This document shows positions 1,054 through 41,949 of a stretch of 64,000 nucleotides of DNA, piece after piece. The first letter of the stretch is position 1. Every line of letters begins with the position of its first letter. The stretch comes from Escherichia coli (GTDB lineage Bacteria; Pseudomonadota; Gammaproteobacteria; Enterobacterales; Enterobacteriaceae): assembly GCF_003790525.1 (NCBI RefSeq), contig NZ_CP033635.1. One strand, written 5' to 3'. Under the pieces are notes generated by a model that saw only the letters and a list, made by a program, of their open reading frames with translations, made no database searches and was not told where the DNA came from. A program made the position numbers and the translations under genes.

Positions 1054-1290
1054 AACAACTCCTTAAAAATTGCACCCATGGCAATTGCACGAGCAGTGTT
1101 AATGTGGCGATTACGGTATCGATGACAACGAGTAAATAAGGTGATGAATATCACACAGGGATTATTAACAAAAGAATTCAAATAACCGCCGGGCTATTAC
1201 GCGTTATTTTTTAATAAGCGTGATTGTTTTAAAAACCAGGTTAAAAGCGAGCGGATTATCAAATAAATTCTAACTATATTTTTTTGCCTG

Positions 1291-1310
1291 TCTGGATCAC
1301 ATAATCCAGA
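1291..1310. promoter_or_regulatory. Inverted repeat TCTGGAT-N6-ATCCAGA about 60 bp upstream of allD; candidate activator (AllS-type LysR) site
   Basis: Perfect 7-bp arms read directly in the sequence; assignment to AllS is inference from position in the fdrA-allD divergent region. Confidence 0.3.
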
Positions 1311-1369
1311 TATTTTCCCTGTATGTTAATTGCAGTCATGCTTCACATCGTCGTTAAAAAGGAAGACAG

Positions 1370-2419
1370 ATGAAAATCAGTCGGGAAACACTCCACCAGC
1401 TAATTGAGAATAAACTCTGCCAGGCTGGGTTAAAACGTGAGCACGCTGCAACCGTGGCTGAAGTATTGGTTTACGCCGATGCCAGAGGGATCCACTCTCA
1501 TGGCGCGGTGCGCGTGGAATACTACGCCGAACGCATTTCAAAAGGCGGCACCAACCGTGAACCGGAATTTCGTCTTGAAGAAACCGGACCGTGCTCGGCA
1601 ATTTTACATGCCGACAATGCCGCCGGACAGGTCGCGGCGAAAATGGGTATGGAACATGCCATCAAAACCGCCCAGCAAAATGGCGTTGCGGTGGTCGGTA
1701 TCAGCCGGATGGGTCACAGCGGCGCAATCTCTTATTTTGTACAGCAGGCAGCTCGCGCCGGGTTAATTGGCATTTCGATGTGCCAGTCCGATCCAATGGT
1801 GGTGCCGTTTGGCGGCGCGGAAATTTACTACGGTACTAACCCACTGGCCTTTGCCGCGCCGGGAGAAGGCGACGAGATCCTTACCTTTGATATGGCGACT
1901 ACCGTACAGGCATGGGGAAAAGTGCTCGACGCCCGTTCGCGTAATATGTCTATCCCGGATACCTGGGCGGTCGATAAAAACGGTGCACCAACAACCGATC
2001 CGTTCGCGGTACATGCTCTGCTCCCCGCCGCTGGGCCGAAAGGGTATGGCCTGATGATGATGATTGACGTCCTCTCAGGCGTCTTACTCGGCTTACCGTT
2101 TGGGCGACAGGTTAGTTCGATGTATGACGATTTACACGCCGGGCGTAATTTGGGGCAATTACATATCGTTATTAACCCGAACTTTTTCTCCTCCAGCGAA
2201 TTATTCCGTCAACATCTTAGCCAGACCATGCGCGAATTAAATGCCATTACCCCCGCGCCCGGTTTTAATCAGGTTTATTATCCCGGACAGGATCAGGATA
2301 TTAAACAACGCAAAGCCGCCGTCGAAGGCATCGAAATTGTTGATGATATTTACCAGTATTTGATTTCCGACGCGCTTTATAACACGTCATACGAAACGAA
2401 AAATCCCTTTGCGCAATAA
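1370..2419 (+). CDS. allD: Ureidoglycolate dehydrogenase
   Basis: ORF track, 349 aa; translation recognised as AllD; synteny with allC/allE. Confidence 0.9.
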   Translation: MKISRETLHQLIENKLCQAGLKREHAATVAEVLVYADARGIHSHGAVRVEYYAERISKGGTNREPEFRLEETGPCSAILHADNAAGQVAAKMGMEHAIKTAQQNGVAVVGISRMGHSGAISYFVQQAARAGLIGISMCQSDPMVVPFGGAEIYYGTNPLAFAAPGEGDEILTFDMATTVQAWGKVLDARSRNMSIPDTWAVDKNGAPTTDPFAVHALLPAAGPKGYGLMMMIDVLSGVLLGLPFGRQVSSMYDDLHAGRNLGQLHIVINPNFFSSSELFRQHLSQTMRELNAITPAPGFNQVYYPGQDQDIKQRKAAVEGIEIVDDIYQYLISDALYNTSYETKNPFAQ

Positions 2420-2440
2420 TTATTGAGACAGGACTTTCTT

Positions 2441-3676
2441 ATGATTACACATTTCCGTCAAGCTATAGAAGAAACGCTGCCCTGGCTTTCCTCTTTTGGC
2501 TCTGACCCAACGGGTGGAATGACCCGTTTACTTTATTCGCCGGAATGGTTGGAAACCCAGCAGCAATTTAAAAAAAGAATGGCAGCAAGCGGGCTGGAAA
2601 CACGTTTCGATGAAGTGGGGAATTTATACGGTCGCCTGAGTGGCACCGAATATCCACAGGAAGTGGTTCTGAGCGGTTCGCATATCGATACCGTGGTTAA
2701 CGGCGGTAACCTCGACGGACAATTCGGCGCACTGGCGGCGTGGCTGGCAATTGACTGGTTGAAAACGCAATACGGCGCGCCGTTACGTACGGTCGAAGTG
2801 GTGGCGATGGCAGAAGAAGAAGGCAGCCGCTTCCCGTATGTCTTCTGGGGCAGTAAAAATATCTTTGGGCTGGCGAATCCTGACGACGTGCGGAATATCT
2901 GTGATGCCAAAGGAAATAGTTTTGTCGATGCGATGAAGGCTTGCGGATTTACTCTGCCGAACGCCCCACTAACTCCGCGTCAGGATATTAAAGCCTTTGT
3001 CGAACTGCATATCGAACAGGGCTGTGTGCTGGAAAGTAATGGGCAATCAATTGGCGTGGTGAATGCAATTGTCGGGCAACGTCGCTATACGGTGACGCTG
3101 AATGGCGAATCAAACCATGCAGGCACCACGCCGATGGGTTATCGTCGTGATACGGTTTACGCTTTCAGTCGCATTTGCCATCAGTCGATCGAAAAAGCGA
3201 AAAAGATGGGCGACCCGCTGGTGCTGACCTTTGGCAAGGTGGAACCGCGCCCGAATACGGTAAATGTGGTGCCGGGGAAAACCACGTTCACCATTGATTG
3301 TCGTCATACCGACGCCGCCGTGCTGCGCAATTTCACCCAACAGTTAGAAAACGACATGCGGGCGATTTGCGATGAAATGGACATTGGTATTGATATCGAT
3401 TTATGGATGGACGAAGAACCGGTGCCGATGAATAAGGAGCTGGTCGCCACCCTGACAGAATTGTGTGAAAGCGAAAAACTGAATTACCGGGTAATGCACA
3501 GTGGTGCCGGGCACGACGCACAAATTTTCGCGCCTCGCGTGCCGACCTGCATGATTTTCATTCCCAGCATCAACGGGATCAGCCATAACCCGGCGGAACG
3601 CACCAATATTACCGACCTTGCCGAAGGGGTCAAAACGTTGGCACTCATGCTTTATCAACTTGCCTGGCAGAAATAA
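2441..3676 (+). CDS. allC: Allantoate amidohydrolase
   Basis: ORF track 2423..3676; recognised AllC; start moved to internal Met (MITHFRQAIEE...) to match the known ~411 aa protein. Confidence 0.9.
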   Translation: MITHFRQAIEETLPWLSSFGSDPTGGMTRLLYSPEWLETQQQFKKRMAASGLETRFDEVGNLYGRLSGTEYPQEVVLSGSHIDTVVNGGNLDGQFGALAAWLAIDWLKTQYGAPLRTVEVVAMAEEEGSRFPYVFWGSKNIFGLANPDDVRNICDAKGNSFVDAMKACGFTLPNAPLTPRQDIKAFVELHIEQGCVLESNGQSIGVVNAIVGQRRYTVTLNGESNHAGTTPMGYRRDTVYAFSRICHQSIEKAKKMGDPLVLTFGKVEPRPNTVNVVPGKTTFTIDCRHTDAAVLRNFTQQLENDMRAICDEMDIGIDIDLWMDEEPVPMNKELVATLTELCESEKLNYRVMHSGAGHDAQIFAPRVPTCMIFIPSINGISHNPAERTNITDLAEGVKTLALMLYQLAWQK

Positions 3677-3686
3677 GGAGTCATAA

Positions 3687-4472
3687 ATGGGATATTTAAA
3701 TAACGTCACCGGTTACCGCGATGATTTACTGGCTAACCGTGCGATTGTGAAACACGGTAATTTCGCGCTGTTAACCCCGGACGGCCTGGTAAAAAATATT
3801 ATTCCGGGCTTTGAAAATTGTGACGCGACAATCCTCTCCACGCCAAAACTGGGTGCCTCTTTTGTTGATTATCTGGTCACACTGCATCAAAACGGCGGCA
3901 ACCAACAGGGCTTCGGTGGCGAAGGCATTGAAACGTTCCTGTATGTGATCTCTGGAAATATCACTGCCAAAGCCGAAGGTAAAACATTTGCCTTAAGCGA
4001 AGGTGGCTATCTTTATTGCCCGCCAGGCTCCTTAATGACGTTTGTTAACGTCCAGGCCGAAGACAGCCAAATCTTTTTATATAAGCGTCGCTATATTCCG
4101 GTAGAAGGTCATGCGCCGTGGCTGGTTTCTGGCAATGCCAGCGAACTGGAACGCATTCATTATGAAGGCATGGACGATGTTATTCTGCTGGATTTTCTGC
4201 CCAAAGAGTTAGGTTTTGATATGAACATGCATATCCTCTCTTTTGCACCAGGTGCCAGCCACGGTTATATCGAAACCCACGTTCAGGAACACGGTGCCTA
4301 TATTCTTTCCGGTCAGGGGGTTTATAACCTCGACAATAACTGGATCCCGGTGAAAAAAGGCGATTACATCTTTATGGGCGCTTATTCTTTACAGGCTGGT
4401 TATGGCGTAGGGCGTGGTGAAGCGTTCAGCTATATTTACTCGAAAGATTGCAACCGCGACGTAGAGATTTAA
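3687..4472 (+). CDS. allE: (S)-ureidoglycine aminohydrolase (cupin)
   Basis: ORF track, 261 aa; recognised YlbA/AllE; 10-nt spacing after allC. Confidence 0.88.
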   Translation: MGYLNNVTGYRDDLLANRAIVKHGNFALLTPDGLVKNIIPGFENCDATILSTPKLGASFVDYLVTLHQNGGNQQGFGGEGIETFLYVISGNITAKAEGKTFALSEGGYLYCPPGSLMTFVNVQAEDSQIFLYKRRYIPVEGHAPWLVSGNASELERIHYEGMDDVILLDFLPKELGFDMNMHILSFAPGASHGYIETHVQEHGAYILSGQGVYNLDNNWIPVKKGDYIFMGAYSLQAGYGVGRGEAFSYIYSKDCNRDVEI

Positions 4473-4514
4473 GTCATACCACTCGCCTGATTATTTTTAG
4501 CTATGTTGGATTTT

Positions 4515-4541
4515 GCCACGGTTTATTCCGTGGCTTTTTTT
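4515..4541 (+). terminator. Rho-independent terminator downstream of allE
   Basis: GCCACGG / CCGTGGC stem followed by a T7 run. Confidence 0.5.
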
Positions 4542-4554
4542 GCGGTAAATTCAG

Positions 4555-4587
4555 GTAAAAAACGGATGCGATATAAATCGCATCCGC
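4555..4587 (-). terminator. Rho-independent terminator downstream of glxK
   Basis: CGGATGCGAT / ATCGCATCCG stem; on the minus strand it is followed by a U-run (plus-strand A-run 4557-4562). Confidence 0.5.
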
Positions 4588-4601
4588 TTTAAAGGTAATA
4601 G

Positions 4602-5747
4602 TCAGTTTTTAATTCCCTGACCTATTTTAATGGCGCAGGCAATATTTCGTGCGCTGTTGAAGAGATTGGTTTCACCGCTGGCGAGCACTTCGGCTAAAGG
4701 TGCCAGACGTGGCAAAATGCTGAACACCGCGTCAATGCCGTACTGGTGCACCACTTCCACGCCATCACCCAATACGCCAGCAATCCCAATCACCGGGACA
4801 TTAAACTGCTTCGCCACCGACGCCACGCCCAGCGGCGCTTTACCACCTGCCGTTTGCGAATCGATGCGCCCTTCCCCGGTGATCACCAGCGCTGCACCCT
4901 GCACCGCCTGCTCCAGGTTGACCGCCCGCAGTACAATCTCAATACCCGGTTTAATATCCGCATTGAGGAATACCGCCGCCGCAATGCCCATACCGCCCGC
5001 CGCGCCGCCACCCGCCATCTGGCAGACGTTGATTTCAGTTAGCTGTTGTAAAACACGGGCGTAATTTTGCAGCCCCTGTTCCAGTTCTTCGACCATTTCC
5101 GGCGTTGCCCCTTTTTGCGGACCAAACACCGCCGCCGCGCCGCGTGCCCCTACCAGCGGGTTATCAACGTCACATGCTACTTCAATATGACAGTTCGCCA
5201 GACGCGGATCGCATTCATTCATCTCAATACTTGCCACCCGCGCTAAATTGCCGCCGTTAGCCGCCAGCGGCTGACCGTCGGCATCAAGGAAACGCACACC
5301 GAGCGCCTGCGCCATGCCCATACCGCCGTCGACCGTCGCACTGCCGCCAATGCCGAGAATAATATGGCGAATGCCGTTATCCAGCGCATGGCGAATTAAC
5401 TCCCCCGTACCAAAACTGGAGGCCAGCAACGGATTACGCTTTTCAGGCGCGACCAGCATCAGGCCACTTGCTGCCGCCATCTCAATCACTGCCGTTTTCC
5501 CGTCGCCGGTAAGTCCATAAAAAGCATTCACTTTTTCGCCCATCGGCCCGCAGACTTCAAGCTTCACGATGTTACCGCCCGTCGCGGCGACCATCGCCTC
5601 CACCGTCCCTTCGCCGCCATCCGCTATCGGCAAACAGATATAGTGCGCATCGGGAAATATGGTCGAAAACCCGGCTTTAATTGCCTGACAACATTTTTCT
5701 GCACTTAAGCTCTCTTTAAAAGAGTCTGGCGCAATGACAATCTTCAT
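4602..5747 (-). CDS. glxK: Glycerate 2-kinase (glycerate kinase II)
   Basis: ORF track 4602..5753; recognised GlxK; start placed at [11 protein letters not shown] to match the ~381 aa protein. Confidence 0.9.
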
Positions 5748-6019
5748 TATCAATCCTTTTTCAACAAATTATTCGATGCGTTCCCACGGAATAAGATTAT
5801 CCATAAGAACAGCCAGTAAAATTCCGACCAGTAAGCCGTTACTGAGCAGAGGACGAAGCGTTAATGGAAGGTCTTGCAGATACACAGGCGGTAATGCCAT
5901 TAAAAATATGCCGACAAATAACGGCAATGCGAGTCGATAAATATTGCGAGCGGTAAACGTTATTTGCTGGCTAAACACCAGCGCGGAAAAGAGTAAAGGC
6001 AGATGGTAATGACTCCAAC

Positions 6020-6523
6020 TTACTGATAGTGTTTTATGTTCAGATAATGCCCGATGACCTTGTCATGCAGCTCCACCGATTTTGAGAACGACAGTGACTT
6101 CCGTCCCAGCCTTGCCAGATGTTGTCTCAGATTCAGGTTATGCCGCTCAATTCGCTGAGTGTAACGCTTGCTGATTACGTGCAGCTTTCCCTTCAGGCGG
6201 GATTCATACAGCGGCCAGCCATCCGTCATCCATACCACGACCTCAAAGGCCGACAGCAGGCTTAGAAGACGCTCCAGTGTGGCCAGAGTGCGTTCACCGA
6301 ATACGTGCGCAACAACCGTCTTCCGGAGCCTGTCATACGCGTAAAACAGCCAGCGCTGGCGCGATTTAGCCCCGACGTATCCCCACTGTTCGTCCATTTC
6401 CGCGCAGACGATGACGTCACTGCCCGGCTGTATGCGCGAGGTTACCGACTGCGGCCTGAGTTTTTTAAATGGCGGAAAATCGTGTTGAGGCCAACGCCCA
6501 TAATGCGGGCGGTTGCCCGGCAT
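6020..6523 (-). CDS. insB: IS1 InsB (C-terminal part of InsAB' transposase)
   Basis: ORF track, 167 aa, recognised InsB. Confidence 0.95.
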
Positions 6524-6717
6524 CCAACGCCATTCATGGCCATATCAATGATTTTCTGGTGCGTACCGGGTTGAGAAGCGGTGTAAGTGAACTGCAGTTG
6601 CCATGTTTTACGGCAGTGAGAGCAGAGATAGCGCTGATGTCCGGCGGTGCTTTTGCCGTTACGCACCACCCCGTCAGTAGCTGAACAGGAGGGACAGCTG
6701 ATAGAAACAGAAGCCAC
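6442..6717 (-). CDS. insA: IS1 InsA (transposition repressor / N-terminal part of InsAB' transposase)
   Basis: ORF track, 91 aa, [23 protein letters not shown]... recognised; A6C slippery motif lies at plus-strand 6460-6466. Confidence 0.95.
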
Positions 6718-7902
6718 TGGAGCACCTCAAAAACACCATCATACACTAAATCAGTAAGTTGGCAGCATCACCAAGGCAGATAAGAAACCAACATGACCGC
6801 GCTACTCACCGGTAAAGGGATACTGCAAAACAGTCGTGTGAGTGCCGGAACCAGTGCCACCAGCAGGCAAATAACGCTGCCATAAATAAACGATCGTCGC
6901 GTGTAATCGCCAGTCTGGGTTAATAAACCAATGGATGAAACAAACGGTGAAAATGGAATTACCGCCAGCGGCACGGTTATCAGCGTCATAAATCCGGTCG
7001 CCACAAAGCTGCGACGATAACGCGTATTCCCCGCGCCCTGTTGCGGATAAAAAACATCCGTGCCACGAATCGCACCGTAGGTATTGCTGATATTTACCAG
7101 ACCTGTAATCACCGCCGTCAGAATAATCCCCGGCGACAAAGCACCGCCACTGCCGAGCGGGAACCACTGCCAGTGCAACTCACCGGAGAGCGAATGCGAA
7201 GAAGGAAAGCAAAAGTACCACAACAACCAGCCGGTTATCGTACCGACCAGCAGGCCATAACGGGCAAAACGTTGCGGCAGGAAGATAATCATCGCCAGTA
7301 CCAGGCACATCACCGCCACCGAGAGCGCGAACGGCGGTAACTGAATTTTAAAATTCGGGTCGGCTATGCCAAACGGCAGCCCGAGCATACCTTTGAAAAA
7401 GATAGTGGTCAGCTGCGCGCCCAGCATCAACATAAACAAGACCATCACCGACGGCGTAAATAACCGCGCCAGACGATGACCTAATCCGCTAAAACCAATC
7501 AACATCGTCAGCACGCCAGAGAGCGCAATTCCCACCGCCAGGCTGGTAGCGATATCGTTGATCGGTGTCCCGCGCGATGCTTCGCCAAGGGTGATAGTCA
7601 GGATGGTTCCCCACCACAGGCCACCCGGCCCTTCCATAATAGCGCGACGATGACCGCAGAACGCCTGAGCGAAGCAGGCCAGTGCGGTAGCAAGAAAAGC
7701 ATATTGCGTGAGCGTAAGCAGGCTACTTTGCGGCAACTGAAAAGCAGAAAGTAGCGTAGGAGGAACCACAACCGTGTTGCAAAAAATAAAGAAAAACCAC
7801 TGAAATCCTGATAACAGGCTTTCGCGGCCCACTGCAAAATTGAACATAAACACACCTTAACCGGAGAATGCCCGCCACAAGGACGGGCATTGCAGGGCCA
7901 GA

Positions 7903-9264
7903 TTACTGCTGATGTTTAAGGATAAATTGACCTTTCGGCGCAACAGGGAAGCCCTGTTCGATGTCGTAAATCACATCACCACGTAAGATGGTTTTCGTGA
8001 TACGCGCGCCAATAGTACGGCCAACATACGGGCTGACTTTGTGGCGATATTCCAGATCGTCATTGGTAAGAACATAGCTGCTATTCGGCTGAATGAAGAC
8101 GAAGTCGGCATCTTTTCCTGGGGCGATACGGCCTTTTTGCTGCAGACCGAAAATATCTGCTGCGTTAGTCGCCATTAATTTGCCGAACATTGGCAGAGAC
8201 ATTCCGCGTTTCTGTACCGCTTCATCGAACATCACGTCCATGCAGCTTTGCAGACCAGCGATACCGCCCCACGCTTTCATGATGTTACCGGCTTTCATTT
8301 CCGGCGGGCATGGAGAGTGGTCGGAAACCAGGCAGTCTATTTCACCGTTAAACAGTTTTTCCCACATGCCTTTCTGGTTTTCCAGATCGCGGATCGGCGG
8401 TGAACACTTCGCCAGGGTGCCAATTTCTTCGAACTGATCGGTATCCAGCACAAAGTAATGCGGGCAGGATTCACAGGTAACATCCTGGCCTTCCTGACGT
8501 GCACGAGTCACTTCTTCAACACCTTCCGGGCTGCTGATATGGCAAACGTGCAGACGGCAACCGGCAACTTTCGCCAGGTACAGCACGCGGCGAATCGCTT
8601 CCACTTCGGTAAATACCGGACGCGAAGCCACATAGTCATGTGCGGTTACGCGACCTTCACGTTTCGCTTCTTCGCCAAGTTCGTCACAGATCAGCGCGTT
8701 TTCGCAGTGCACCAGCACCGGCTGTCCCAGTTCGCCCAGCTTCTGCGCACCTTTGAAGAACTGCCAGTCATTGACGTCACGGAAGTCGTTGTCGATACCG
8801 CGATCGCCACAGGTCGCAACGAAGCATTTGAAGCCGACAACGCCCACTTCATCCAGCTCATGCAGACGGTCGATGTTGTAAGACACCAGGCCACCGAGTT
8901 GCGCCGCATCGATAGTCAGCTTGCCTTTGGCGGCATCAAACTTCAGTTCAATCGATGCGCGGTCAACCGTTGCAGGCAGCTGGTTGAGCGGCATTTCGAT
9001 CATGGTGGTGATACCACCTTTTGCTGCTGCGCGAGTACCGGTTTCATAACCTTCCCAGTGGCTGCGACCCGGTTCAGAAATATGGGTGTGCGCATCAACC
9101 ATGCCTGGCGAAACCACCAGACCAGACGCATCCATAACTTCTTTTGCATCGCCCAGATCCTGACCGATAGCAGCAATTTTTCCGCCTTTAACGGCGACAT
9201 CCACTACGCGAGCTTCGTTTTCTAAAATAACGGTGCCGTTTTTAATGATTAAATCAAAAGACAT
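7903..9264 (-). CDS. allB: Allantoinase
   Basis: ORF track 7903..9312; recognised AllB; start placed at [12 protein letters not shown] to match the ~453 aa protein. Confidence 0.9.
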
Positions 9265-9324
9265 AACAAACTCCTTGTAAAATACAGATTGGTTTTTTAA
9301 CTCAATGTTCAATATCGGGATTAA

Positions 9325-10779
9325 TTAACCTGTGACTTTTTGTTCTCCTGTTTTTTCTGCTGCAGTACGCTTCTTTAATAAGGCGTAGGCCGCAAAGGCG
9401 ACAATAACGCCGACAAACCATGAAACGCGTGATAAAGGCTCCATGAACGGAATAAATTTACCACCGAGAGATAAAATAACGGCGACCAAAGTTACTGAGA
9501 ACGCGGTAAGGTTAAAGCCGTTATCGTAATATTTGAAATCCCCTGCTGCGGTATACAGTTCATCAAGATTAATTTGTCCGCGCATCACCACAAAATAATG
9601 CGCCATCATGACACCAATTACCGGACCCAGCATTCCGCCGATAATATCGAGGAACAGATAAATGCTGTCCTGATTTTCCATTAATTTCCACGGGCAGATC
9701 AGCAAGCTGATAATACTGGCAATCAGTACGCCGTTTTTATAGGTCAGTTTCGTCGGTGCAATAGCGGCTATCTGATAACCAGCCGGAATAATATTACCGG
9801 TGGCGTTAGTGGAGATAGTCGTCATCAGAATAACCAGTACCGCAAAGAACGAGGCAAACAGGCTGTCCCAACGCTGAACAATATCCAGCACGTTCCAGGT
9901 GTCCGCGCCGTAGTGAATACTGGCTCCGGCAATAATACATACCCCGGCGACCGCAAACAGAATATAGGCCACAACTAAACCCAGCGTTTGCCCCAGCGCC
10001 TGCTCACGAAACGAGTGGGCGTTTTGCGTAAAGTCGGATGCGCTCACCGCCGGTGCCGCCCAGACCGCAACTACCGCGTTAATCACCACCAGGAACAGGA
10101 AGCCACCGTTTTCTGCTTTCTGAATACCGCCCGGAATATAGTCAAAGATTGGACCGATCCCGACCAGCGAAATCGCCCAAATCGCCATACCGCCGAAAAC
10201 GATATAGATGCACGGGTTAAGAATGGCAGTGAATTTATTTAAAACTTTGCCATCACCGAAACCGATTCCGACGTTCACCAGCCAGAAGAGTAAGAAAGTG
10301 ATTAAACCCGGTAGAGAAAGCCCTAACAGGGTAAAATCACCACCGAGAGTTAAAAATCCCGGCCAGATTTTGCCAATCAGGATCAAGCAGGCCAGCGATC
10401 CAGCGTAACATTGCAGGCCAAACCACATAATGGCAGCAATCCCGCCTCTTAATAATCCGGGAAACAGTGCACCACGTACGCCGTAAGAAGCACGCAGGAT
10501 CATGGCAAAAGGCACACCGTATTTACTGCCCGCAGCACCGTTTAATACCATTACCGCGGCAATGAAAAAGGCGCTGAGGATAATTGCCAGCATAATACTA
10601 AAGGTAGACAAGCCGAGAATAAAAAAGCCGCCGACCATCACATAATTGGGAACGTTATGAACCGAACCCATCCATAAGGTAAAATAGTTAAATGTTTTCC
10701 AGGTCCGCTGGCTTTGCGTTTTCGGCAATAGATCTTCGCTATAGCCGCGTTGCTGGAATAGTTTTCTCTGATGTTCCAT
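9325..10779 (-). CDS. ybbW: Allantoin permease (NCS1 family)
   Basis: ORF track, 484 aa, polytopic membrane protein recognised as YbbW. Confidence 0.88.
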   Translation of the reverse strand: MEHQRKLFQQRGYSEDLLPKTQSQRTWKTFNYFTLWMGSVHNVPNYVMVGGFFILGLSTFSIMLAIILSAFFIAAVMVLNGAAGSKYGVPFAMILRASYGVRGALFPGLLRGGIAAIMWFGLQCYAGSLACLILIGKIWPGFLTLGGDFTLLGLSLPGLITFLLFWLVNVGIGFGDGKVLNKFTAILNPCIYIVFGGMAIWAISLVGIGPIFDYIPGGIQKAENGGFLFLVVINAVVAVWAAPAVSASDFTQNAHSFREQALGQTLGLVVAYILFAVAGVCIIAGASIHYGADTWNVLDIVQRWDSLFASFFAVLVILMTTISTNATGNIIPAGYQIAAIAPTKLTYKNGVLIASIISLLICPWKLMENQDSIYLFLDIIGGMLGPVIGVMMAHYFVVMRGQINLDELYTAAGDFKYYDNGFNLTAFSVTLVAVILSLGGKFIPFMEPLSRVSWFVGVIVAFAAYALLKKRTAAEKTGEQKVTG

Positions 10780-10948
10780 AAATCCCTCTTAATTTCACGT
10801 ATCGAATAACGTCTTTTTAATCTAGCTATGAGGAACAAATAAAATAAAAATATTATTTTTAATACTGAAGCAACATCTTTGGCTGCTTTCTTTTTTTAAT
10901 ATTGCTGGCCGATTCATTTTCTGATATCGGCCATTTTTATTGCGGGTA

Positions 10949-11827
10949 TCAGGCCAGTTTATGGTTAGCCATTAATTCCAGCGCCTGCACTAACGCAGAG
11001 TGATCCAACTGGCTACCACCGTTTGCCGCACAGGTATTAAACAATTCCTGGCAGGTCGCGGTGTTTGGCAGATTCAGCGCCAGTGCTTTCGCACTTTGCA
11101 GTGCCAGGTTGAGATCTTTCTGGTGCAGCGCAATTTTAAAACCTGGATTAAAGGTGCGTTTAATCATGCGCTCACCGTGAACTTCCAGAATACGTGAGGA
11201 AGCAAAGCCGCCCATCAGCGCCTGGCGCACACGTACCGGATCCGCTCCGGCTTTTGAAGCAAATAGCAGGGCTTCAGAAACCGCTTCAATATTGAGCGCC
11301 ACGATAATCTGATTTGCCACTTTGCAGGTTTGACCGTCGCCGTTACCGCCCACGAGGGTGATATTTTTACCGAGCAGTTCAAACAGCGGTTTAACACGTT
11401 CAAATACCGCTTCGTCACCGCCAACCATAATCGACAACGTCCCTTCACGCGCGCCGATTTCACCGCCGGAGACGGGCGCATCGAGATAATCGCCGCCCAG
11501 TTCATTCACCTGACGAGCGAAACGTTTAGTTTCGATCGGGGAAATGGAGCTCATATCAACAATGGTTTTGCCCTTCAGCGAGGCTTTGGTACAACCATTT
11601 TCACCAAACAGAACGTCTTCAACCTGTGGCGTATCCGGCACCATAATAAAAATGATGTCCGATGCTTCCGTTACCTGGCGCGCAGTTTCAACACTGACGG
11701 CACCCAGTGACAGTAATTCATCAGCAACCGGACCAATGGTTGTGACATGCAGTTGATGACCGGCACGCGCCAGATTAATGGCCATCGGAGTACCCATAAT
11801 GCCTAAGCCAATAAATCCCAGTTTCAT
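10949..11827 (-). CDS. glxR: Tartronate semialdehyde reductase
   Basis: ORF track, 292 aa; N-terminal GxGxxG NAD-binding motif; recognised GlxR. Confidence 0.9.
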   Translation of the reverse strand: MKLGFIGLGIMGTPMAINLARAGHQLHVTTIGPVADELLSLGAVSVETARQVTEASDIIFIMVPDTPQVEDVLFGENGCTKASLKGKTIVDMSSISPIETKRFARQVNELGGDYLDAPVSGGEIGAREGTLSIMVGGDEAVFERVKPLFELLGKNITLVGGNGDGQTCKVANQIIVALNIEAVSEALLFASKAGADPVRVRQALMGGFASSRILEVHGERMIKRTFNPGFKIALHQKDLNLALQSAKALALNLPNTATCQELFNTCAANGGSQLDHSALVQALELMANHKLA

Positions 11828-11926
11828 AATTAACCTCTTTTAAATTTCGCTTTTCCTGAATTCAGACAACACGATCCCCTGCCGACTTAGCGACCTAAAA
11901 AAGCATTGTCTGAATAGCGTTACGTT

Positions 11927-12703
11927 TTAACGGTACGGATCCATCCAGCGTAAACCAGCTTCCGTGGTGGTTTGGGGTTTATATTCACAGCCAATCCAAC
12001 CGTTGTAGTCAGAATTTTCAATTACCGTAAAGAGATATTCGTAATTAATTTCTCCGGTTCCCGGTTCGCCGCGATGCGGATTATCAGCGATTTGCAGGTG
12101 ACCAATTTTATCGGCCCATTGCGTCATAGTGTTGGTTAATTCACCCTCCATCCGCTGCATGTGATAAATGTCATACTGAATTTTCAAATTGCAGCAACCA
12201 ACATCATCAATCAATTTCAGCGCCTGCCGAGTTCCGGTGAGATGGAAACCAGGAATATCAAAATGGTTGATAGGTTCAATCAGTAATAAAATATCTTCTT
12301 TCATCAGCATATTCGCGGCATAACGCAGGTTTTCTACAAGCGTTGCGTGAATCTGTTCACTGCTGAAACCAGCCGGCGTTTTACCGACCAGACAGTTAAT
12401 TTTTTTATTACCCAGCGCACGAGCATAACGAATCGCTGCTGCTACGCCATCCCGAAACTCTTCTTCACGGCCAGGAATACAGGCAATACCCCGCTCGCCC
12501 GCCGCCCAGTCACCTGCCGGTAAATTGTGCAGCGTATGTTCGAGTTTATTACTCGCCAGCACCTGTTTTAATTCTTCAATGTCGTAGTCATAAGGGAACA
12601 TAAATTCAACGCCGCGAAAACCACACTGCGCAGCTTTCTCAAAACGGGCGAGAAAATCATATTCACCAAATAACATCGATAAATTAGCAGAGAAACGTAA
12701 CAT
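11927..12703 (-). CDS. hyi: Hydroxypyruvate isomerase
   Basis: ORF track, 258 aa; recognised Hyi. Confidence 0.9.
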   Translation of the reverse strand: MLRFSANLSMLFGEYDFLARFEKAAQCGFRGVEFMFPYDYDIEELKQVLASNKLEHTLHNLPAGDWAAGERGIACIPGREEEFRDGVAAAIRYARALGNKKINCLVGKTPAGFSSEQIHATLVENLRYAANMLMKEDILLLIEPINHFDIPGFHLTGTRQALKLIDDVGCCNLKIQYDIYHMQRMEGELTNTMTQWADKIGHLQIADNPHRGEPGTGEINYEYLFTVIENSDYNGWIGCEYKPQTTTEAGLRWMDPYR

Positions 12704-12715
12704 TATTTATCTCCC

Positions 12716-14497
12716 TTATTCATAGTGCATGAAACAGGTTTCAGTCGGTGCGTCCGCTGCGTTATCGGCGATATCTTCAAATTCCATGACGTTATCCAGT
12801 TCACTGCCCATCGAAATATTGGTCACACGCTCGAGAATAACTTCCACGACTACAGGTACCCGATATTGCGCTATTAAGACTTTCGCCTGTTCAAAGGCTG
12901 GTGCAATATCTTCCGGTTTGAAAACGCGAATTGCTTTACAACCTAAACCTTCCGCTACTTTTACGTGGTCGACGCCATAACCGTTCACTTCGCTGGAGTT
13001 AATATTTTCGAAAGCGAGCTGTACGCAGTAATCCATATCAAACGCGCGCTGCGACTGGCGAATCAGCCCCAGATAAGCGTTGTTCACCAGTACATGGATG
13101 TACGGAATATTGAACTGTGCGCCAACGGCTAATTCTTCAATCAGGAACTGGAAGTCGAAGTCACCGGAAATCGCCACCACATTGCGCTCTGGATCAGCGG
13201 CACACACGCCCAGCGCCGCCGGAATGGTCCAGCCCAACGGGCCTGCCTGCCCACAGTTGATCCAGTGGCGGTCTTTAAAGACATGCAGCATTTGTGCCGC
13301 AGCGATTTGTGACAGACCAATGGTGGTGACATAACAAACATCGCGACCAAAGGCTTTGTTCATCTCTTCATACACGCGCTGCGGTTTCACCGGCACATTG
13401 TCGAAGTGGGTTTTGCGCAGCAAAGTGCGTTTGCGCTGCTGGCAGTCGGCGACCCATTCTTTACGACACGGCAGACGACCCGCTTTTTGCATCTCCTGCG
13501 CCACTTCAACCAGCAGCGTCAGCGCTGCTTTAGCATCAGAGACAATGCCGAGATCCGGACACAGCACGCGGCCAATTTGCGTCGGCTCAATATCGATATG
13601 AACGATTTTGCGCCCTTCGGTGTATTTCTCTACCGAACCGGTATGACGGTTAGCAAAACGGTTACCGATACCAAACACCATGTCGGACGCCAGCAGCGTT
13701 GCGTTACCGTAACGATGCGCGGTTTGCAGACCCACCATCCCGGCCATCAGTTCATGATCGTCGGGAATACAGCCCCAGCCCATCAGCGTTGGGATCACCG
13801 GAACGCTGGTCAGTTCAGCAAACTGTTGTAACAGTGCAGCAGCGTCAGCATTGATTACCCCGCCCCCGGCAACAATCACCGGACGTTCGGCCTGAATTAA
13901 CATTTCTACAGCTTTTTCGATCTGCATACGGCTGGCAGCAGGTTTGTAGACCGGCAGCGGTTCGTACATGTCAGGATCAAACTCGATTTCCGCAACCTGA
14001 ACGTCGAACGGTAAATCCACCAGTACCGGACCCGGGCGACCAGAACGCATCAGGTGAAACGCCTGTTGCAGCACACGAGGCACCAGCGCCGCTTCACGAA
14101 CTGTAACCGCCATTTTGCTGACCGGTTTAGCAATTGCTTCAATATCAACGGCCTGGAAATCTTCTTTATGCAGACGGGCGCGCGGAACCTGGCCGGTAAT
14201 ACACAGAATAGGAATGGAATCAGCAGAAGCAGAATAGAGCGCGGTGATCATGTCCGTGCCCGCAGGACCGGAAGTCCCCAGACATACGCCGATATTCCCT
14301 GCCGTTGCGCGGGTATAACCTTCCGCCATGTGCGAAGCACCTTCCACATGACGCGCCAGAATGTGACGAATACCGCCGTGCTTACGCATCGCTGAGTAGA
14401 ACGGATTGATTGCAGCTCCCGGAACGCCGAAGGCGGTGATGATACCTTCTTTCTCCAGCACATACATTGCCGCGTCAACGGCTCTCATTTTTGCCAT
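12716..14497 (-). CDS. gcl: Glyoxylate carboligase (tartronate-semialdehyde synthase)
   Basis: ORF track 12716..14587 (623 aa) is an over-extension; start placed at [13 protein letters not shown] giving the ~593 aa ThDP enzyme. Confidence 0.9.
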
Positions 14498-17171: not shown

Positions 17172-18281
<1,110 letters not shown>

Positions 18282-18309
18282 TAGGCGGTATTCTGTGCAC
18301 GCTGTTCAT

Positions 18310-18396
18310 GCCGGATGCGGCGTGAACGCCTTATCCGGCCTACGGTTAAGTGCAGTTTTGTAGGCCTGATAAGACGCGCCAGCGTCGCATCAGGCA
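18310..18396. repeat. REP/BIME: pair of inverted REP palindromes
   Basis: GCCGGATGCGGCGTGAACGCCTTATCCGGCCTAC and TAGGCCTGATAAGACGCGCCAGCGTCGCATCAGGC motifs. Confidence 0.85.
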
Positions 18397-18411
18397 ATCT
18401 AACGCCTGTCA

Positions 18412-20826
18412 TCATCCCGCAAACTGCCTGAACAGCGCCTTACCCTTAACCAGTCGCGCACCCAGCCAGCCGCCGCAAAGCGACAGCAGCAGCGCACCGC
18501 TGCACGGCAGCACAATCCACAATCGCCAGTCTGGCTCCCACGGGAAATCAAACACTTTCGCCTGCAACACTGCCAGCGCCGTTTCCGCACCAATTGCGGC
18601 CACCAGGCCAGAAACAAACCCAAGCATGGCGAACTCACACCACAATGTCGTGCGCAGCAGCTTTTTCCCCGCACCGAGTGTGCGCCACACCACCAGCTCC
18701 TGATGACGCTGACGCATTCCCACCTGCACCTGTGCCAGCAACAGCAACATACCGCAGGCGGTGACCAGCACCACCATCACCTCCAGCGCCCGACTTACCT
18801 GCTCCAGCACCTGACCGACCTGTTTTAAAATCGCGCCAATGTCTAACAGGCTAATGGTCGGGAACTGGCGGTTGAGTTGCGTCAACATGCCGTTGCCATT
18901 CTCCCAGCGGAAACTGGTAAGCCAGCTCTGCGGTTGCCCGTCTAATGCCCCTTCAGGGAAAATAAAATAGAAATTAGGCCGCAGACTTTCCCAGTCCACT
19001 TTGCGCAGGCTGGTCACTTTAGCGCGGAACTCCTGGGTATCGCCCATAAAAGTCACGGTATCACCGAGGGCAACGTTTAAGCGTTTCGCCAGCCCCTCTT
19101 CCATCGACACTTCATCGGCTTTTGGCGGCCAGTTACCGGCGACAATCGGATTATGATCGGGCCGCGTATTTTGCCAGGTAAGATTGAGTTCGCGATTGAG
19201 CGCCTCATCTTCATTGCCTTCTGTCGGCTTGCCGTTAATCGCCGTCAGTCTCGCCCGCACCACCGGATAAAACGATTCCGGGACTATCTGATGTTCCGCG
19301 AGGAACGCTTTTAGCGGTGCTACCTGTTCTGTGGCGATGTTAATTAAAAAGTAGTTCGGGCTTTCTGGAGGTAGCTGCTGCTGCCAGCGGTCGAGCAGAT
19401 CGCCACGCAACACCAGCAGCAGTGCCAGCAGCATAAAGGAGAGCGAAAATGCCGAAAGCTGGCTTAACGTTGACCACGGCTGACGTAACAGGCGGCTAAC
19501 CGCCAGGCGCAGAGGCAGCGATTTCAGCGTCATGCGGCGAAGTACATTCAGCAGCATCCAGCCCAGCACACCGCACAGCAAAGCCAGTACTACCGCGCCC
19601 GCCAGCACCGCCCAAAGCAGCATGCTGCCACCCATTAATCCGGCGAGCAGCAGCACAACCACTACACTGACAATCGGCAGATAAAACTTCAGCGGCCAGA
19701 CGTTCGCTACCACATCATTACGTAATACGCGTAAAGGCTGCGTTGCCAGCAACAAGCGGTATGGTCGTAGCCCCACCAGCAGCGAGATAACCGTCATGGT
19801 GCCGAGCGCCCACAGCCACGGCCAGAGGCTGGCTGGCGGTAGTGCGGCAGGCAGAACGGGCTTGAGCAGCACCATCAACACGTTTTCGAACAACAGGCCT
19901 ATCGCCCCACCGGTAACGGCTGAAAGCGTCAGCACCATCAACCACTGACCGACGATTAGCTTACGCAGTTGCGCTCGCCCTGCCCCCAGCGTTTTGAGGA
20001 TCGCCACCAGATCGTAGCGACTGCGACAGTAATGATTCATCGCCACCGCCACCGCTGCCACTGCCAGCAGCAAGGTCAGAAGCGCAGAAAGCAGCAGGAA
20101 CTGTTGCGAGCGTTCCATCGAGCGCCCCAGCGCGCCTTCGTCCTGTTCCAGACCGTACCAGCGTTGTTCGGGTTTAAGCTGGGGTAACAACCATTTCTCA
20201 TAGCCGTCGAGCTGGTTCTCGTTGCCGCCGAATTTATAGCGCCAGGTGACCCGACTTCCCGGCTGCACGGCTCCGGTTTTATCGACATCCGCCAGATTCA
20301 TCATCAGACGCGGAGCCATCTGGAAGGGGTTAAAACCGGAATCCGGTTCCTGAATCACTTCTCCGGCAATCCGCAAGGTGGCATCGCCCACGTCAATGGT
20401 GTCGCCCGTTTTCAGGTTAAGCAGTGCCATCAGGCGTGGGGCCAGCAATACGCTGCCCGCCTGCGGTTTCAGGCCTGGGGGATTGGTTTGCAGATCGCCA
20501 TACATCGGGTAGATATCATCCACCGCTTTGACGTTCGCCAGCTGCGGTGTGTCGCCTGCAAATGTCATGGTGGCGAAAGTCAGCTGCTTGCCGACTTTCA
20601 GGCCGCGCTTTTGCGCTTCCTCCAGCCACGCTTGCGGCACTTCGCGCGAACTGCGCAACGCCCGATCGCCCGCCATAAACTCCCGGCTTTGCTGGCTTAA
20701 GCCCTTCTCCATGCGATCGCTGATATTGCCCAGCGCCAGCACGCAGGCCACCGCCAGGCTTAGCGCCAGCCAGACAATTAATAGCGACGGCGAGCGCCAT
20801 TCGCGCCAGAACCAACGTGCAATCAT
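18412..20826 (-). CDS. ybbP: ABC transporter permease (FtsX-like, two domains)
   Basis: ORF track, 804 aa; recognised YbbP; 4-nt overlap with ybbA. Confidence 0.88.
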   Translation of the reverse strand: MIARWFWREWRSPSLLIVWLALSLAVACVLALGNISDRMEKGLSQQSREFMAGDRALRSSREVPQAWLEEAQKRGLKVGKQLTFATMTFAGDTPQLANVKAVDDIYPMYGDLQTNPPGLKPQAGSVLLAPRLMALLNLKTGDTIDVGDATLRIAGEVIQEPDSGFNPFQMAPRLMMNLADVDKTGAVQPGSRVTWRYKFGGNENQLDGYEKWLLPQLKPEQRWYGLEQDEGALGRSMERSQQFLLLSALLTLLLAVAAVAVAMNHYCRSRYDLVAILKTLGAGRAQLRKLIVGQWLMVLTLSAVTGGAIGLLFENVLMVLLKPVLPAALPPASLWPWLWALGTMTVISLLVGLRPYRLLLATQPLRVLRNDVVANVWPLKFYLPIVSVVVVLLLAGLMGGSMLLWAVLAGAVVLALLCGVLGWMLLNVLRRMTLKSLPLRLAVSRLLRQPWSTLSQLSAFSLSFMLLALLLVLRGDLLDRWQQQLPPESPNYFLINIATEQVAPLKAFLAEHQIVPESFYPVVRARLTAINGKPTEGNEDEALNRELNLTWQNTRPDHNPIVAGNWPPKADEVSMEEGLAKRLNVALGDTVTFMGDTQEFRAKVTSLRKVDWESLRPNFYFIFPEGALDGQPQSWLTSFRWENGNGMLTQLNRQFPTISLLDIGAILKQVGQVLEQVSRALEVMVVLVTACGMLLLLAQVQVGMRQRHQELVVWRTLGAGKKLLRTTLWCEFAMLGFVSGLVAAIGAETALAVLQAKVFDFPWEPDWRLWIVLPCSGALLLSLCGGWLGARLVKGKALFRQFAG

Positions 20827-23846: not shown

Positions 23847-23996
23847 GTAGGCCTGATAAGACGCGCCAGCGTCGCATCAGGCATCCGCGCATAGCCGCCG
23901 GATGCGGCGTGAACGCCTTATCCGGCCTACCAAACCGTGCTAATTCAATACATTGCAGGTGCCATGTAGGTCTGATAAGACGCATCAGGCATCGCA
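23847..23996. repeat. REP/BIME cluster (three REP units)
   Basis: Repeated GCCTGATAAGACGCG...CGCATCAGGC and GCCGGATGCGGCGTGAACGCCTTATCCGGCCTAC motifs. Confidence 0.85.
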
Positions 23997-27060: not shown

Positions 27061-27423
27061 TTACTCTTCCCGGCCTTTACCCATACTTTTTTGGTCTTCA
27101 TCCGGATAGTGTTTTTTTAGATATTCCAGGACGTTTTTATTGACCTTGTGTTGGGTATACACCCACCCTTTCCAGTAATCAGGTTGGTCCAGGTAAACTT
27201 CTGGCGGAATGGTGAAATCAGAAAGCGTTAACCATTCGGCTAACAGATCGGGGTTTCGTTTCTGGATCAACTGCAACAGCATGATCAGCGACATGGCAGA
27301 GGCAGGAGCCGTACTATCGCCGCTTAAATACTTCCACACTGTCGACCGGTTCGAACGAAAAAGGATCGGTAGCAATGCCCGGTCCAGATTCATTTCATTA
27401 AAAATCTTCTCAAATTCATTCAT
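27061..27423 (-). CDS. Hypothetical protein, 120 aa, no signal peptide; function unknown
   Basis: ORF track; not recognised; divergent from the adhesin gene across an AT-rich intergenic region; not present at this position in my recollection of K-12. Confidence 0.5.
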   Translation of the reverse strand: MNEFEKIFNEMNLDRALLPILFRSNRSTVWKYLSGDSTAPASAMSLIMLLQLIQKRNPDLLAEWLTLSDFTIPPEVYLDQPDYWKGWVYTQHKVNKNVLEYLKKHYPDEDQKSMGKGREE

Positions 27424-27788
27424 TTAAATTTCCTGCCTGGCGTAAACCTCTTAAAAATTGAGATTTATCAAAGAAACGCATTTTAGCACACATCAGGAAC
27501 CGCTTCACGTTTAGTCCAGAAACAGAATTTATTTCGCTTATCAAAACAAGTCTTTACTCTTTTTTACATTGAAAGAGCACGAAATAATTTCCTTTTTTAT
27601 TTATATAAGAAACTATTTTTGTTCCTTATTGGTGGTGTTTACGCTTACACAAGACAAAAATGCGCTTTACATCACACAAATGGCGGCGTAGATTTCGATC
27701 AAATTGCAACGCAGTTTATTTCTTAAAACAATATTATTTGTTTCTTATAGAAACATTAATGCGACTTATTTTGAACAAGAGAAAATGA

Positions 27789-28805
27789 ATGAAAACTGTA
27801 AACGTAGCTTTACTGGCACTCATAATTTCAGCAATATCCAGCCCTGTTGTTTTAGCTGGTGATACCATTGAAGCGGCGGCAACAGAGCTTTCAGCCATTA
27901 ACTCTGGCATGTCGCAATCGGAGATTGAGCAGAAGATTACCCGCTTTTTAGAACGCACAGACAACAGCCCCGCTGCGTATACCTATTTGACTGAACATCA
28001 CTACATCCCTTCTGAAACACCTGATACCACTCAGACTCCCACTGTCCAGACAGATCCTGACGCAGGACAAAAAACCGTTGCCGCTACAGGTGATGTACAG
28101 ACAACCGCCCGTTATCAGAGCATGATCAACGCCCGACAGTCTGCGGTAACTGATGCCCAGCAAACGCAAATTACAGAGCAACAGGCGCAGATCGTAGCCA
28201 CACAAAAAACGCTCGCCGCGACTGGAGATACGCAAAATACCGCGCATTATCAGGAGATGATTAATGCCAGACTGGCGGCTCAAAATGAGGCTAATCAGCG
28301 CACTACCACGGAACAAGGGCAGAAAATGAATGCACTGACAACCGATGTGGCAGCACAACAGCAAAAAGAAAGGGCTCAATACGATAAACAAATGCAAAGT
28401 CTGGCGCAGAAGTCTGTCCAGGCACATGAGCAAATTGAAAGTCTGAGACAAGATTCCGCACAAACGCAGCAACAGTTAACCAACACGCAAAAACGGGTCG
28501 CAGATAACAGCCAACAAATTAACACGCTCAATAACCATTTCGATTCTCTGAAAAACGAAGTTGAGGACAATCGTAAAGAAGCCAATGCGGGAACTGCATC
28601 TGCCATTGCTATCGCCTCACAACCACAGGTGAAAACCGGTGACGTGATGATGGTGTCAGCGGGAGCGGGAACGTTCAACGGTGAATCTGCGGTGTCTGTA
28701 GGAACATCTTTTAATGCCGGAACGCATACGGTACTTAAAGCAGGTATTTCTGCGGATACACAATCTGATTTCGGTGCGGGTGTCGGCGTGGGATATTCGT
28801 TCTAA
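27789..28805 (+). CDS. Miniature trimeric autotransporter adhesin-like protein: signal peptide, Gln-rich coiled-coil stalk, YadA-type C-terminal beta-barrel anchor
   Basis: ORF track, 338 aa; N-terminal signal-like MKTVNVALLALIISAISSPVVLAG; stalk-anchor junction KEANAGTASAIAIASQPQ; anchor GDVMMVSAGAGTFNGESAVSVGTSF...VLKAGIS...GAGVGVGYSF with terminal aromatic; purine-rich RBS-like AAGAGA upstream. Confidence 0.8.
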   Translation: MKTVNVALLALIISAISSPVVLAGDTIEAAATELSAINSGMSQSEIEQKITRFLERTDNSPAAYTYLTEHHYIPSETPDTTQTPTVQTDPDAGQKTVAATGDVQTTARYQSMINARQSAVTDAQQTQITEQQAQIVATQKTLAATGDTQNTAHYQEMINARLAAQNEANQRTTTEQGQKMNALTTDVAAQQQKERAQYDKQMQSLAQKSVQAHEQIESLRQDSAQTQQQLTNTQKRVADNSQQINTLNNHFDSLKNEVEDNRKEANAGTASAIAIASQPQVKTGDVMMVSAGAGTFNGESAVSVGTSFNAGTHTVLKAGISADTQSDFGAGVGVGYSF

Positions 28806-28858
28806 TTTTAACAGCAATTTCTTATTCGCAATTTTCCGCACATTATTTAAGGTTAACA

Positions 28859-29281
28859 ATGATGAATAGCTCCATTAAATCGTTTTCCCTGCTGGCGGTT
28901 ATATTACTGGCTGGCTGTAGTTCACCCACTTCCCGCATCGCAGATTGCCAGGCGCAGGGCGTCAGCCATGACACCTGTTATCTCGCAGAACAGCAGCGTC
29001 AGACGGCTATTTTAAGTGCATCCGAGGCGCAGGCATTTAAAAATGCAGAAGCCGCACAACATGCCCAGGCGGCAAAGAAAGCCATTTATAAAGGATTTGG
29101 CATGACCTTTAGAATGAGCAGTAAGAACTTTGCTTATCTCAATGATTCATTATGTGCAATTGATGAAGACAATAAAGATGCCACTGTTTATCAGTCAGGT
29201 CTTTATAACGTCATTGTTTATCACCACACGGGAAAAGTCGCCTTAATGAAGGAAGGTCAGTTTGTGGGTTATTTAAAATGA
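28859..29281 (+). CDS. Putative lipoprotein, 140 aa
   Basis: ORF track; signal peptide with lipobox LLAGC (Cys20); immediately downstream of the adhesin gene. Confidence 0.6.
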   Translation: MMNSSIKSFSLLAVILLAGCSSPTSRIADCQAQGVSHDTCYLAEQQRQTAILSASEAQAFKNAEAAQHAQAAKKAIYKGFGMTFRMSSKNFAYLNDSLCAIDEDNKDATVYQSGLYNVIVYHHTGKVALMKEGQFVGYLK

Positions 29282-29481
29282 AGGAGCAAAGGAAAATCCC
29301 CCTGACGCATATTATGATTATCGGTGCGTTTATTTTTGCCTTCTTGCAAGTGGTGTTATTAGCCTCCCTGGTTCACGCTGTGAATGTTAACAACGAAATC
29401 CAGGAAGGCTTATTTCAGTCGGGGCGCATTATGGTAGAAAGTTTGCAGCATATTCTTTCGGTGCAAACGGGGATTAACTGA
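29278..29481 (+). CDS. Putative small single-pass membrane protein, 67 aa
   Basis: ORF track; start overlaps the lipoprotein stop (ATGA); one hydrophobic helix IMIIGAFIFAFLQVVLLASLV. Confidence 0.4.
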   Translation: MKEQRKIPLTHIMIIGAFIFAFLQVVLLASLVHAVNVNNEIQEGLFQSGRIMVESLQHILSVQTGIN

Positions 29482-29484
29482 TTT

Positions 29485-29892
29485 TCACCCCGCCCGATGA
29501 TGACAGCAGCCGGAGAGATTTTCGATAATCGGGCAGTCGGCGCTGTCATCACCGGGGCAGGCATTCGCCAGCGCCAGTAGCTGGTTGCGCATGGATTGCA
29601 GTTCTTCGATATGCCGTTCGATCTCCGCTACCTTCTCCAACGTACGACGTTTGACGTCGGCACTGTGACGCTGCGGATCGTTAAACAGATTCACCAGCTC
29701 GCCGCTCTCTTCCAGGTTAAAGCCCACCTGGCGTGCCTGCCGCAGTAAGGTCAGTTCGTTGAGATGCTGCTGCGTGTAGGTTCGATAACCATTTTCGCTG
29801 CGCATCGGCGGCGTCACCAGCCCCTTCTCTTCATAGAAGCGGATTGCTTTGCTGGTCAGGCCGGTAATTTTTGCTACATCGCTAATGTTCAT
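29485..29892 (-). CDS. cueR: MerR-family copper-responsive regulator
   Basis: ORF track, 135 aa; C-terminal metal-binding CCHH; recognised CueR. Confidence 0.92.
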
Positions 29893-30016
29893 CGTTCGCG
29901 CAACGCCTCCTGTGCTTTGTTAAAGGGTTTCAACAAATATTCAAGCACGTTTTTTTGCCAGTGCGAATATCGACCGCCACCACAATAATACAGGAAGTAC
30001 TGCGCACAGAGAGGTG

Positions 30017-36109: not shown

Positions 36110-36191
36110 AAAAATGGCCAATATCGCTATTGGCCCGTCAAAGAGGAATTTCATTTTTTTATTATTATGCCGTCACTTTAAGCGACGGTGT
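36108..36191 (-). ncRNA. chiX: ChiX (MicM/SroB/RybC) Hfq-dependent small RNA
   Basis: Minus-strand sequence ACACCGTCGCTTAAAGTGACGGCATAATAATAAAAAAATGAAATTCCTCTTTGACGGGCCAATAGCGATATTGGCCATTTTTTT matches ChiX as I recall it, ending in a GGCCAATAGCGATATTGGCC hairpin plus U-run; lies in the ybaP-ybaK spacer as in K-12. Confidence 0.8.
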
Positions 36192-41864: not shown

Positions 41865-41949
41865 GTAGGCCTGATAAGACGCGCCAGCGTCGCATCAGGC
41901 ATTGAGAGCAAAATGCCAGATGCGGCGTGAACGCCTTATCTGGCCTACG
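41865..41949. repeat. REP/BIME pair
   Basis: TAGGCCTGATAAGACGCGCCAGCGTCGCATCAGGC and GCCAGATGCGGCGTGAACGCCTTATCTGGCCTAC. Confidence 0.85.

Follow-up and report, generated by a model that had tools for sequence, protein, structure and literature searches.

The ybbY gene lies between allB and glxK in the allantoin cluster of the E. coli DNA analysed here (a stretch of 64 kb, referred to as the window). The gene is not continuous in the window but is split by a copy of IS1, and the element, its terminal features and the neighbouring gene fragments are arranged as follows:

4602-5747, minus strand: glxK, encoding glycerate 3-kinase, intact and last in its operon (score against NCBIfam NF007401, 822 bits)
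5769-6004, minus strand: 3' fragment of ybbY, codons 359-433, without a promoter-proximal start
5996-6004: glxK-side copy of the target-site duplication, AAGGCAGAT, abutting the element end
6005-6772, minus strand: complete IS1, 768 bp, with both inverted repeats, insA and insB
6005-6027, plus strand: right inverted repeat (IRR), read outward GGTAATGACTCCAACTTACTGAT, identical to the IRR of IS1F
6020-6523, minus strand: insB open reading frame, 167 aa, overlapping insA
6020-6717, minus strand: coding region of the InsAB' transposase, 232 aa with a -1 frameshift, intact product
6442-6717, minus strand: insA open reading frame, 91 aa, with a protein identical to InsA of IS1B, IS1C and IS1D
6460-6466, minus strand: A6C slippery motif AAAAAAC, site of the programmed -1 frameshift leading to InsAB'
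6738-6765, minus strand: promoter-like site CTGCCA-16-TATGAT in the left inverted repeat (IRL), pointing toward glxK (consensus scan)
6750-6772, minus strand: IRL GGTGATGCTGCCAACTTACTGAT, an exact match that is identical to the IRL of K-12 IS1A, IS1B and IS1D
6768-7847, minus strand: 5' fragment of ybbY, codons 1-358 plus Trp and TGA contributed by the IRL, the translation ending in SYLPW and stop
6773-6781: allB-side copy of the target-site duplication, AAGGCAGAT, abutting the element end

The position of the element was determined by reading of the sequence combined with a repeat search. The span from 5996 to 6781 comprises the element and both repeats, exact to the base, as had been proposed in an initial annotation of this DNA. 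Both ends of the element were located exactly and its length is exact, so that the description as an intact 768-bp IS1 with two terminal inverted repeats also stands, and the 9-bp direct repeat is perfect as claimed, the copies at 5996-6004 and 6773-6781 both abutting the element. In a motif search, AAGGCAGAT was found twice in the whole 64-kb window, against a chance expectation of 0.43. The terminal sequences GGTAATGACTCCAACTTACTGAT and GGTGATGCTGCCAACTTACTGAT had one occurrence each per 64-kb window, with none expected by chance. The IRR is 1 nt apart from the IRR of IS1A, IS1B and IS1D, and IRL and IRR agree with each other at 19 of 23 positions. This imperfect match is normal for IS1, as the K-12 copies have the same IRL.

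The element shares with the IS1 copies of K-12 the length of 768 bp, the IRL, insA and insB, the A6C motif, the InsAB' product of 232 aa and the 9-bp duplication. The transposase scored 246.5 bits against the model for IS1 family transposases (NCBIfam NF033558; cut-off 100, E = 2e-73), and its RefSeq entry, WP_151884388.1, is named 'IS1 family transposase' without an isoform label. Thus, the features that characterize a member of the IS1 family, i.e., length, inverted repeats, insA/insB' with A6C, transposase model, 9-bp duplication and empty site, were all found for the copy in ybbY.

Comparison with the K-12 copies over 768 nt yielded 23 mismatches to IS1B and IS1C (97.0% identity), 25 to IS1D, 28 to IS1A and 56 to IS1F. 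The mismatches are unevenly distributed along the element. Within nt 1-480, there is 1 mismatch to IS1B and 47 to IS1F, and within nt 481-768 (window 6005-6292) the numbers are 22 and 9, respectively; those separating the element from IS1B are concentrated at element nt 487-750, the IS1F-like stretch. As the 3' part of about 290 nt is IS1F-like while the remainder is IS1B-like, the element is, judged by its sequence, a mosaic or recombinant isoform, first IS1B-like and then IS1F-like, with a breakpoint near nt 480. The pattern suggests recombination between divergent IS1 lineages. An identity as IS1A (or IS1R) was rejected on the basis of the 28 mismatches over 768 nt and 8 amino acid differences in InsAB'; to IS1B, InsAB' differs at 7 residues. 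The mosaic isoform is common and very widespread: in 1,691 E. coli records, the best IS1 match reached an identity of at least 99%, and full-length copies with 100% identity are present on chromosomes as well as on plasmids.

The initial annotation had described the insA/insB frameshift window as unlike the IS1 version known to it and had taken this as a sign of a variant isoform. Just upstream of A6C, 3 nt do differ from IS1A (TTTTCCGCCATTTAAAAAAC, in IS1A TTTTACGTCACTTAAAAAAC), which accounts for the single residue, L81F, by which InsA differs from that of IS1A. The A6C signal itself, on the other hand, is canonical. Within this region, TTTAAAAAAC and all sequence downstream of it are those of K-12 IS1B, IS1C and IS1D, and the A6C motif and its downstream sequence are invariant across the K-12 IS1 copies compared. 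An unusual frameshift window was therefore rejected, since the three upstream nucleotides represent the normal state of IS1B, IS1C and IS1D. The element is nevertheless a variant, owing to the IS1F-like 290 nt at its 3' end, but this variation lies outside the frameshift window.

No uninterrupted full-length ybbY is present in the window, as the gene is split after codon 358. Deletion of positions 6005-6781, i.e., of the element and one repeat, yielded a single uninterrupted ybbY reading frame of 433 aa, which bears out the earlier observation that the frame rejoins across the duplication. The reconstructed YbbY scored 816 bits over residues 1-433 against NF008502, the equivalog model for the YbbY uracil/xanthine transporter of the NCS2 family. 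The truncated YbbY lacks the last 75 residues, corresponding to about two and a half hydrophobic or membrane helices, and we infer that the insertion inactivates ybbY. In the RefSeq annotation, the two ybbY pieces are already given as pseudogenes, the 5' piece without C-terminus and the 3' piece without N-terminus, around an IS1 transposase with programmed frameshift, and the remaining genes of the allantoin cluster are all annotated as intact. The insertion is of an ordinary kind, with the split ybbY already in the RefSeq annotation, and involves no new element or mechanism.

The empty site was searched in 5,426 complete E. coli genomes using a reconstructed 400-bp ybbY stretch as query, and was found to be uninterrupted in 5,314 of them (98%). 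Among the genomes with an uninterrupted site, e1-39, TUM1586 and EC17CM2 share at least 99.9% identity with the window over 25 kb, compared with about 98.7% for the next-nearest lineages. Once IS1 and one repeat are taken out of the window, each of these three genomes agrees with it at all 12,204 bases compared, and each has AAGGCAGAT once. The comparison with IS1-free ybbY alleles, which had been set beforehand as a test of the insertion, hence came out in its favor, with one AAGGCAGAT, no element and no mismatch in the clone-mates. The 1.4 kb around the element are 100% identical to SMS-3-5 and eight other complete genomes. Between the window and SMS-3-5, one mismatch occurs in the first 19.1 kb (position 3755), and between the window and LS45 four occur in 64 kb. 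SMS-3-5 belongs to ST354 (PMC9174282), and by sequence identity the window is assigned to the E. coli ST354 / SMS-3-5 clone. The insertion and its junctions were distributed among complete genomes as follows:

Intact insertion, at least 99.9% identity: 12 complete genomes
glxK-side junction: 16 complete genomes
allB-side junction: 17 complete genomes
One or both junctions: 21 complete genomes

The 21 genomes were obtained from humans, chickens, dogs, a pangolin and surface water, with origins including China, Japan, Thailand, Switzerland and Australia in addition to the SMS-3-5 reference (USA). As the insertion is common to 21 genomes from several continents, it marks most of ST354 and not one strain. 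The insertion had also been called relatively recent. On an evolutionary scale it is young, as indicated by the perfect repeats and by the empty site within the clone, but it is not private to a strain, being present in 21 complete genomes and ancestral to most of the sampled ST354.

Nine of the 21 genomes keep only one of the two junctions. In these, the same IS1 borders a deletion, and five different end points occur (in window coordinates, as determined from the annotated neighborhoods of the deletion genomes):

2D, KFu014 and MINF_1A, IRL side: 6773-10937 lost, with 'ybbY, allB and allW; IS1 abuts glxR
E22, IRL side: 6773-12903 lost, running into gcl ('ybbY-allB-allW-glxR-hyi-gcl')
Three CUVET dog isolates, IRR side: 4543-6004 lost, with ybbY' and glxK
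SBF22, IRR side: 1223-6004 lost, ybbY' through allD
CM2, IRR side: 1063-6004 lost, ybbY' through allD (ybbY'-glxK-allE-allC-allD)

In all deletion genomes IS1 is 100% identical and still has one original flank; on the deleted side the repeat is missing, and more distant DNA of the same allantoin cluster takes the place of the lost flank. The nine genomes probably represent five events, each group of three genomes going back to one event by descent. As the five end points start exactly at an IS1 end and the deleted-side repeat is absent, the deletions are most simply read as IS1 adjacent deletions, in which intramolecular transposition of the ybbY copy would remove neighboring DNA in either direction. 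According to a review (PMC9330008, citing Turlan and Chandler 1995), IS1-type deletions leave the element without direct repeats. In the classical IS1 adjacent deletions (Reif and Saedler; Turlan and Chandler 1995), the element was likewise retained and one flank and the direct repeat were lost; those deletions were selected in the laboratory, whereas the ST354 deletions occur in natural isolates of one clone. With all element parts intact, identical copies widespread and five deletions beginning exactly at its ends, the IS1 copy in ybbY may well be active. The new point of this analysis is that one and the same IS1 copy seems to have given rise to deletions repeatedly.

The allantoin genes form four operons, and ybbY and glxK belong to the same one, with glxK as the last gene (PMC10163214). 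GlxK activates allantoinase (PMC10163214). The position of glxK on the minus strand at 4602-5747 was confirmed and agrees with the annotation. The stop codon of ybbY and the start of glxK are 21 bp apart, and glxK now lies 257 nt downstream of IS1, separated from it by the untranslated ybbY remnant. IS1 insertions are strongly polar in both orientations, due to Rho-dependent termination, and operon-driven expression of glxK is therefore probably reduced; by this mechanism, the reduction may be considerable. The polarity assumed in the initial annotation is thus plausible from the operon structure. The well-known polar IS1 insertions of the gal and lac operons have a comparable setting, with the element within a polycistronic unit and a more distal gene downstream of it; a polar effect of ybbY::IS1 is predicted from the arrangement of the genes. 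Some low-level read-through into glxK may remain, as the promoter of IS1 itself points toward this gene; this promoter has a low strength and is subject to repression by InsA. In a consensus scan for an outward promoter that could serve glxK, nothing was detected above the threshold apart from the promoter-like site in the IRL at 6738-6765, presumably the position of the element's own pIRL promoter. A hybrid promoter across the IRR junction, TTGGAG-17-TACTCT, was considered and not adopted, with 6 of 12 consensus positions and a score below threshold.

Further features were noted around glxK. A terminator-like hairpin with a T-run, TGCCGTTATTTGTCGGCA TATTTTTAAT, is located at 5909-5926 on the minus strand within the 3' remnant of ybbY. 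This hairpin would normally be translated and is now situated in untranslated RNA upstream of glxK, where it might add to polarity. Just downstream of glxK and on the same strand, an Rfam match to the enterobacterial sRNA STnc480 was identified at 4479-4545 (minus strand, 81.9 bits; gathering score 72). It overlaps a terminator-like hairpin at 4515-4534 between the convergent genes glxK and allE, and the end point of the CUVET deletion, 4542/4543, falls inside it. If the STnc480 sRNA derives from the 3' end of glxK, polarity of IS1 could affect STnc480 as well.

Taken together, the data are best explained by a simple insertion of a probably active IS1 at codon 358/359 of ybbY, which would have occurred once, within the ST354 clone, and by deletions beside this copy that are most simply IS1 adjacent deletions; we assign this reading a probability of roughly 0.9. 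A different history would result if e1-39, TUM1586 and EC17CM2 were revertants that regained ybbY by precise excision, and not branches that predate the insertion. Over the stretches compared, the three genomes are in fact indistinguishable from the IS1-bearing ones, as expected for revertants: no mismatch occurs in 12.2 kb, and identity over 25 kb is 99.9% or higher. Precise excision of IS1 is very rare, however, and three independent reversions or one revertant clade would be less parsimonious than a basal position of these genomes. In addition, a clone in which the locus was deleted repeatedly gives no sign of selection for ybbY, and we consider reversion very unlikely. The deletions, in turn, could have arisen by RecA-dependent recombination between the ybbY copy and a second IS1 nearby in the same orientation, which removed the interval and was itself subsequently lost. 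The product would be the same as that of an adjacent deletion, one IS1 with non-matching flanking repeats; moreover, the insertion-bearing genomes carry IS1 at 5-11 places, and in other lineages IS1 is found elsewhere in the allantoin cluster. This route would nevertheless require IS1 to have inserted a further five times within 1.5-6 kb of the ybbY copy, in genomes where IS1 copies are few. The 12 genomes in which the insertion is intact each aligned in one piece across the interval, and no second IS1 was seen there. Adjacent deletion is, furthermore, a classical property of IS1 (review PMC9330008), and recombination between two copies appears unlikely as the source of the deletions.

With respect to the consequences of the insertion, ybbY might be knocked out while glxK is still adequately expressed, either from the IS1 promoter, from a hybrid promoter at the IRR or from a promoter inside the 3' remnant of ybbY. 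The orientation of the element would permit this, as insA and insB are co-oriented with ybbY and glxK and the promoter-like site in the IRL reads from 6765 to 6738. The weak TTGGAG-17-TACTCT site spans the IRR junction, and glxK is intact in 16 of the 21 insertion-bearing genomes. Against sufficient expression stand the low consensus score of the hybrid site, the weakness and InsA-dependent repression of the IS1 promoter and the polarity of IS1 in both directions. The ability of IS1 to form fusion promoters is listed in a review (Prentki 1986, via PMC9330008). Three independent deletions removed glxK in the clone, which suggests that glxK is dispensable in ST354 and also argues against maintained expression. 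Overall, we regard adequate expression of glxK as rather unlikely, and a probable reduction by polarity as the preferred reading.

As the deletions repeatedly removed allantoin genes, the observations suggest that selection on the allantoin cluster is relaxed in ST354. The cluster of losses in this clone is striking, because the 400-bp ybbY stretch is uninterrupted in 98% of complete genomes. A more far-reaching scenario would be that ybbY::IS1 silenced glxK, and with it the activation of allantoinase, disabled the allantoin pathway and then became a resident deletion generator, and that the five losses among 21 genomes were selectively favored as pathoadaptive changes in an extraintestinal lineage associated with poultry and companion animals. 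Allantoin genes have decayed in host-adapted Salmonella, which would be a parallel to such a pathoadaptive loss. We view this scenario as speculative and quite improbable. In the literature collection searched, no paper linked ST354 with allantoin.

For practical purposes, the two IS1/ybbY junctions provide a precise marker for most of ST354, an internationally spread and often multidrug-resistant lineage, and can be used in PCR or k-mer searches. Strains bearing the insertion are predicted to be impaired in anaerobic allantoin use. The locus represents a natural case of two-step gene loss, in which IS1 would first have inserted and the inserted copy would then have given rise to deletions several times, on either side. 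Complete genomes are available for the empty allele, for the undeleted insertion and for each of the five deletion derivatives. Beyond the existing annotation, the analysis adds the clone marker, the recognition of the element as an IS1B/IS1F-type mosaic and the apparent role of the same copy in repeatedly seeding deletions of allantoin genes.

IS1 was also encountered at this locus outside ST354. In PEC414, an IS1A is inserted in ybbY in the same orientation, 63 bp nearer to the 3' end (L019, 1753-2450). Evo1 (NZ_CP101915.1; L018, 5047-5814) and CP137705 carry the identical isoform, which lies between a truncated gcl and the start of glxK; the genes from hyi to ybbY are deleted there. Further genomes have IS1 at ybbY or beside it, or close to hyi, gcl or allC. 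These insertions arose separately and are distinct from the ST354 allele: their sites and genetic backgrounds are different, the isoform is mostly different too, and most of the genomes are rich in IS1 (13-40 copies). The IS1-bounded gcl'-glxK deletion of Evo1 was considered as a general trait of a laboratory lineage (E. coli B), which was dismissed as only 2 genomes carry this deletion. We also do not claim ybbY as a hot spot for IS1, given that the other matches are mostly in IS1-rich genomes.

Some additional features were observed elsewhere in the window. Between ybbJ and cueR, which we take to be adjacent in K-12, positions 27061-29481 encode one hypothetical protein, then a YadA-family autotransporter adhesin (27789-28805), then another two hypothetical proteins. 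This block looks like a lineage-specific islet, and a frameshifted gene fragment follows after it at 29889-29986. At 18281-18412, mnmH (ybbB) is annotated as directly followed by ybbP. In K-12, the RhsD element and associated genes are presumably located between these two genes, and the RhsD element appears to be absent from the window. Rfam matches to naRNA4, a nucleoid-associated, REP-derived RNA, were found on the minus strand at 23850-23927 and 41868-41945 (83.6 and 81.1 bits, respectively). Together with sroB at 36108-36191 and the DnaX frameshift element at 49868-49932, these are expected E. coli features.
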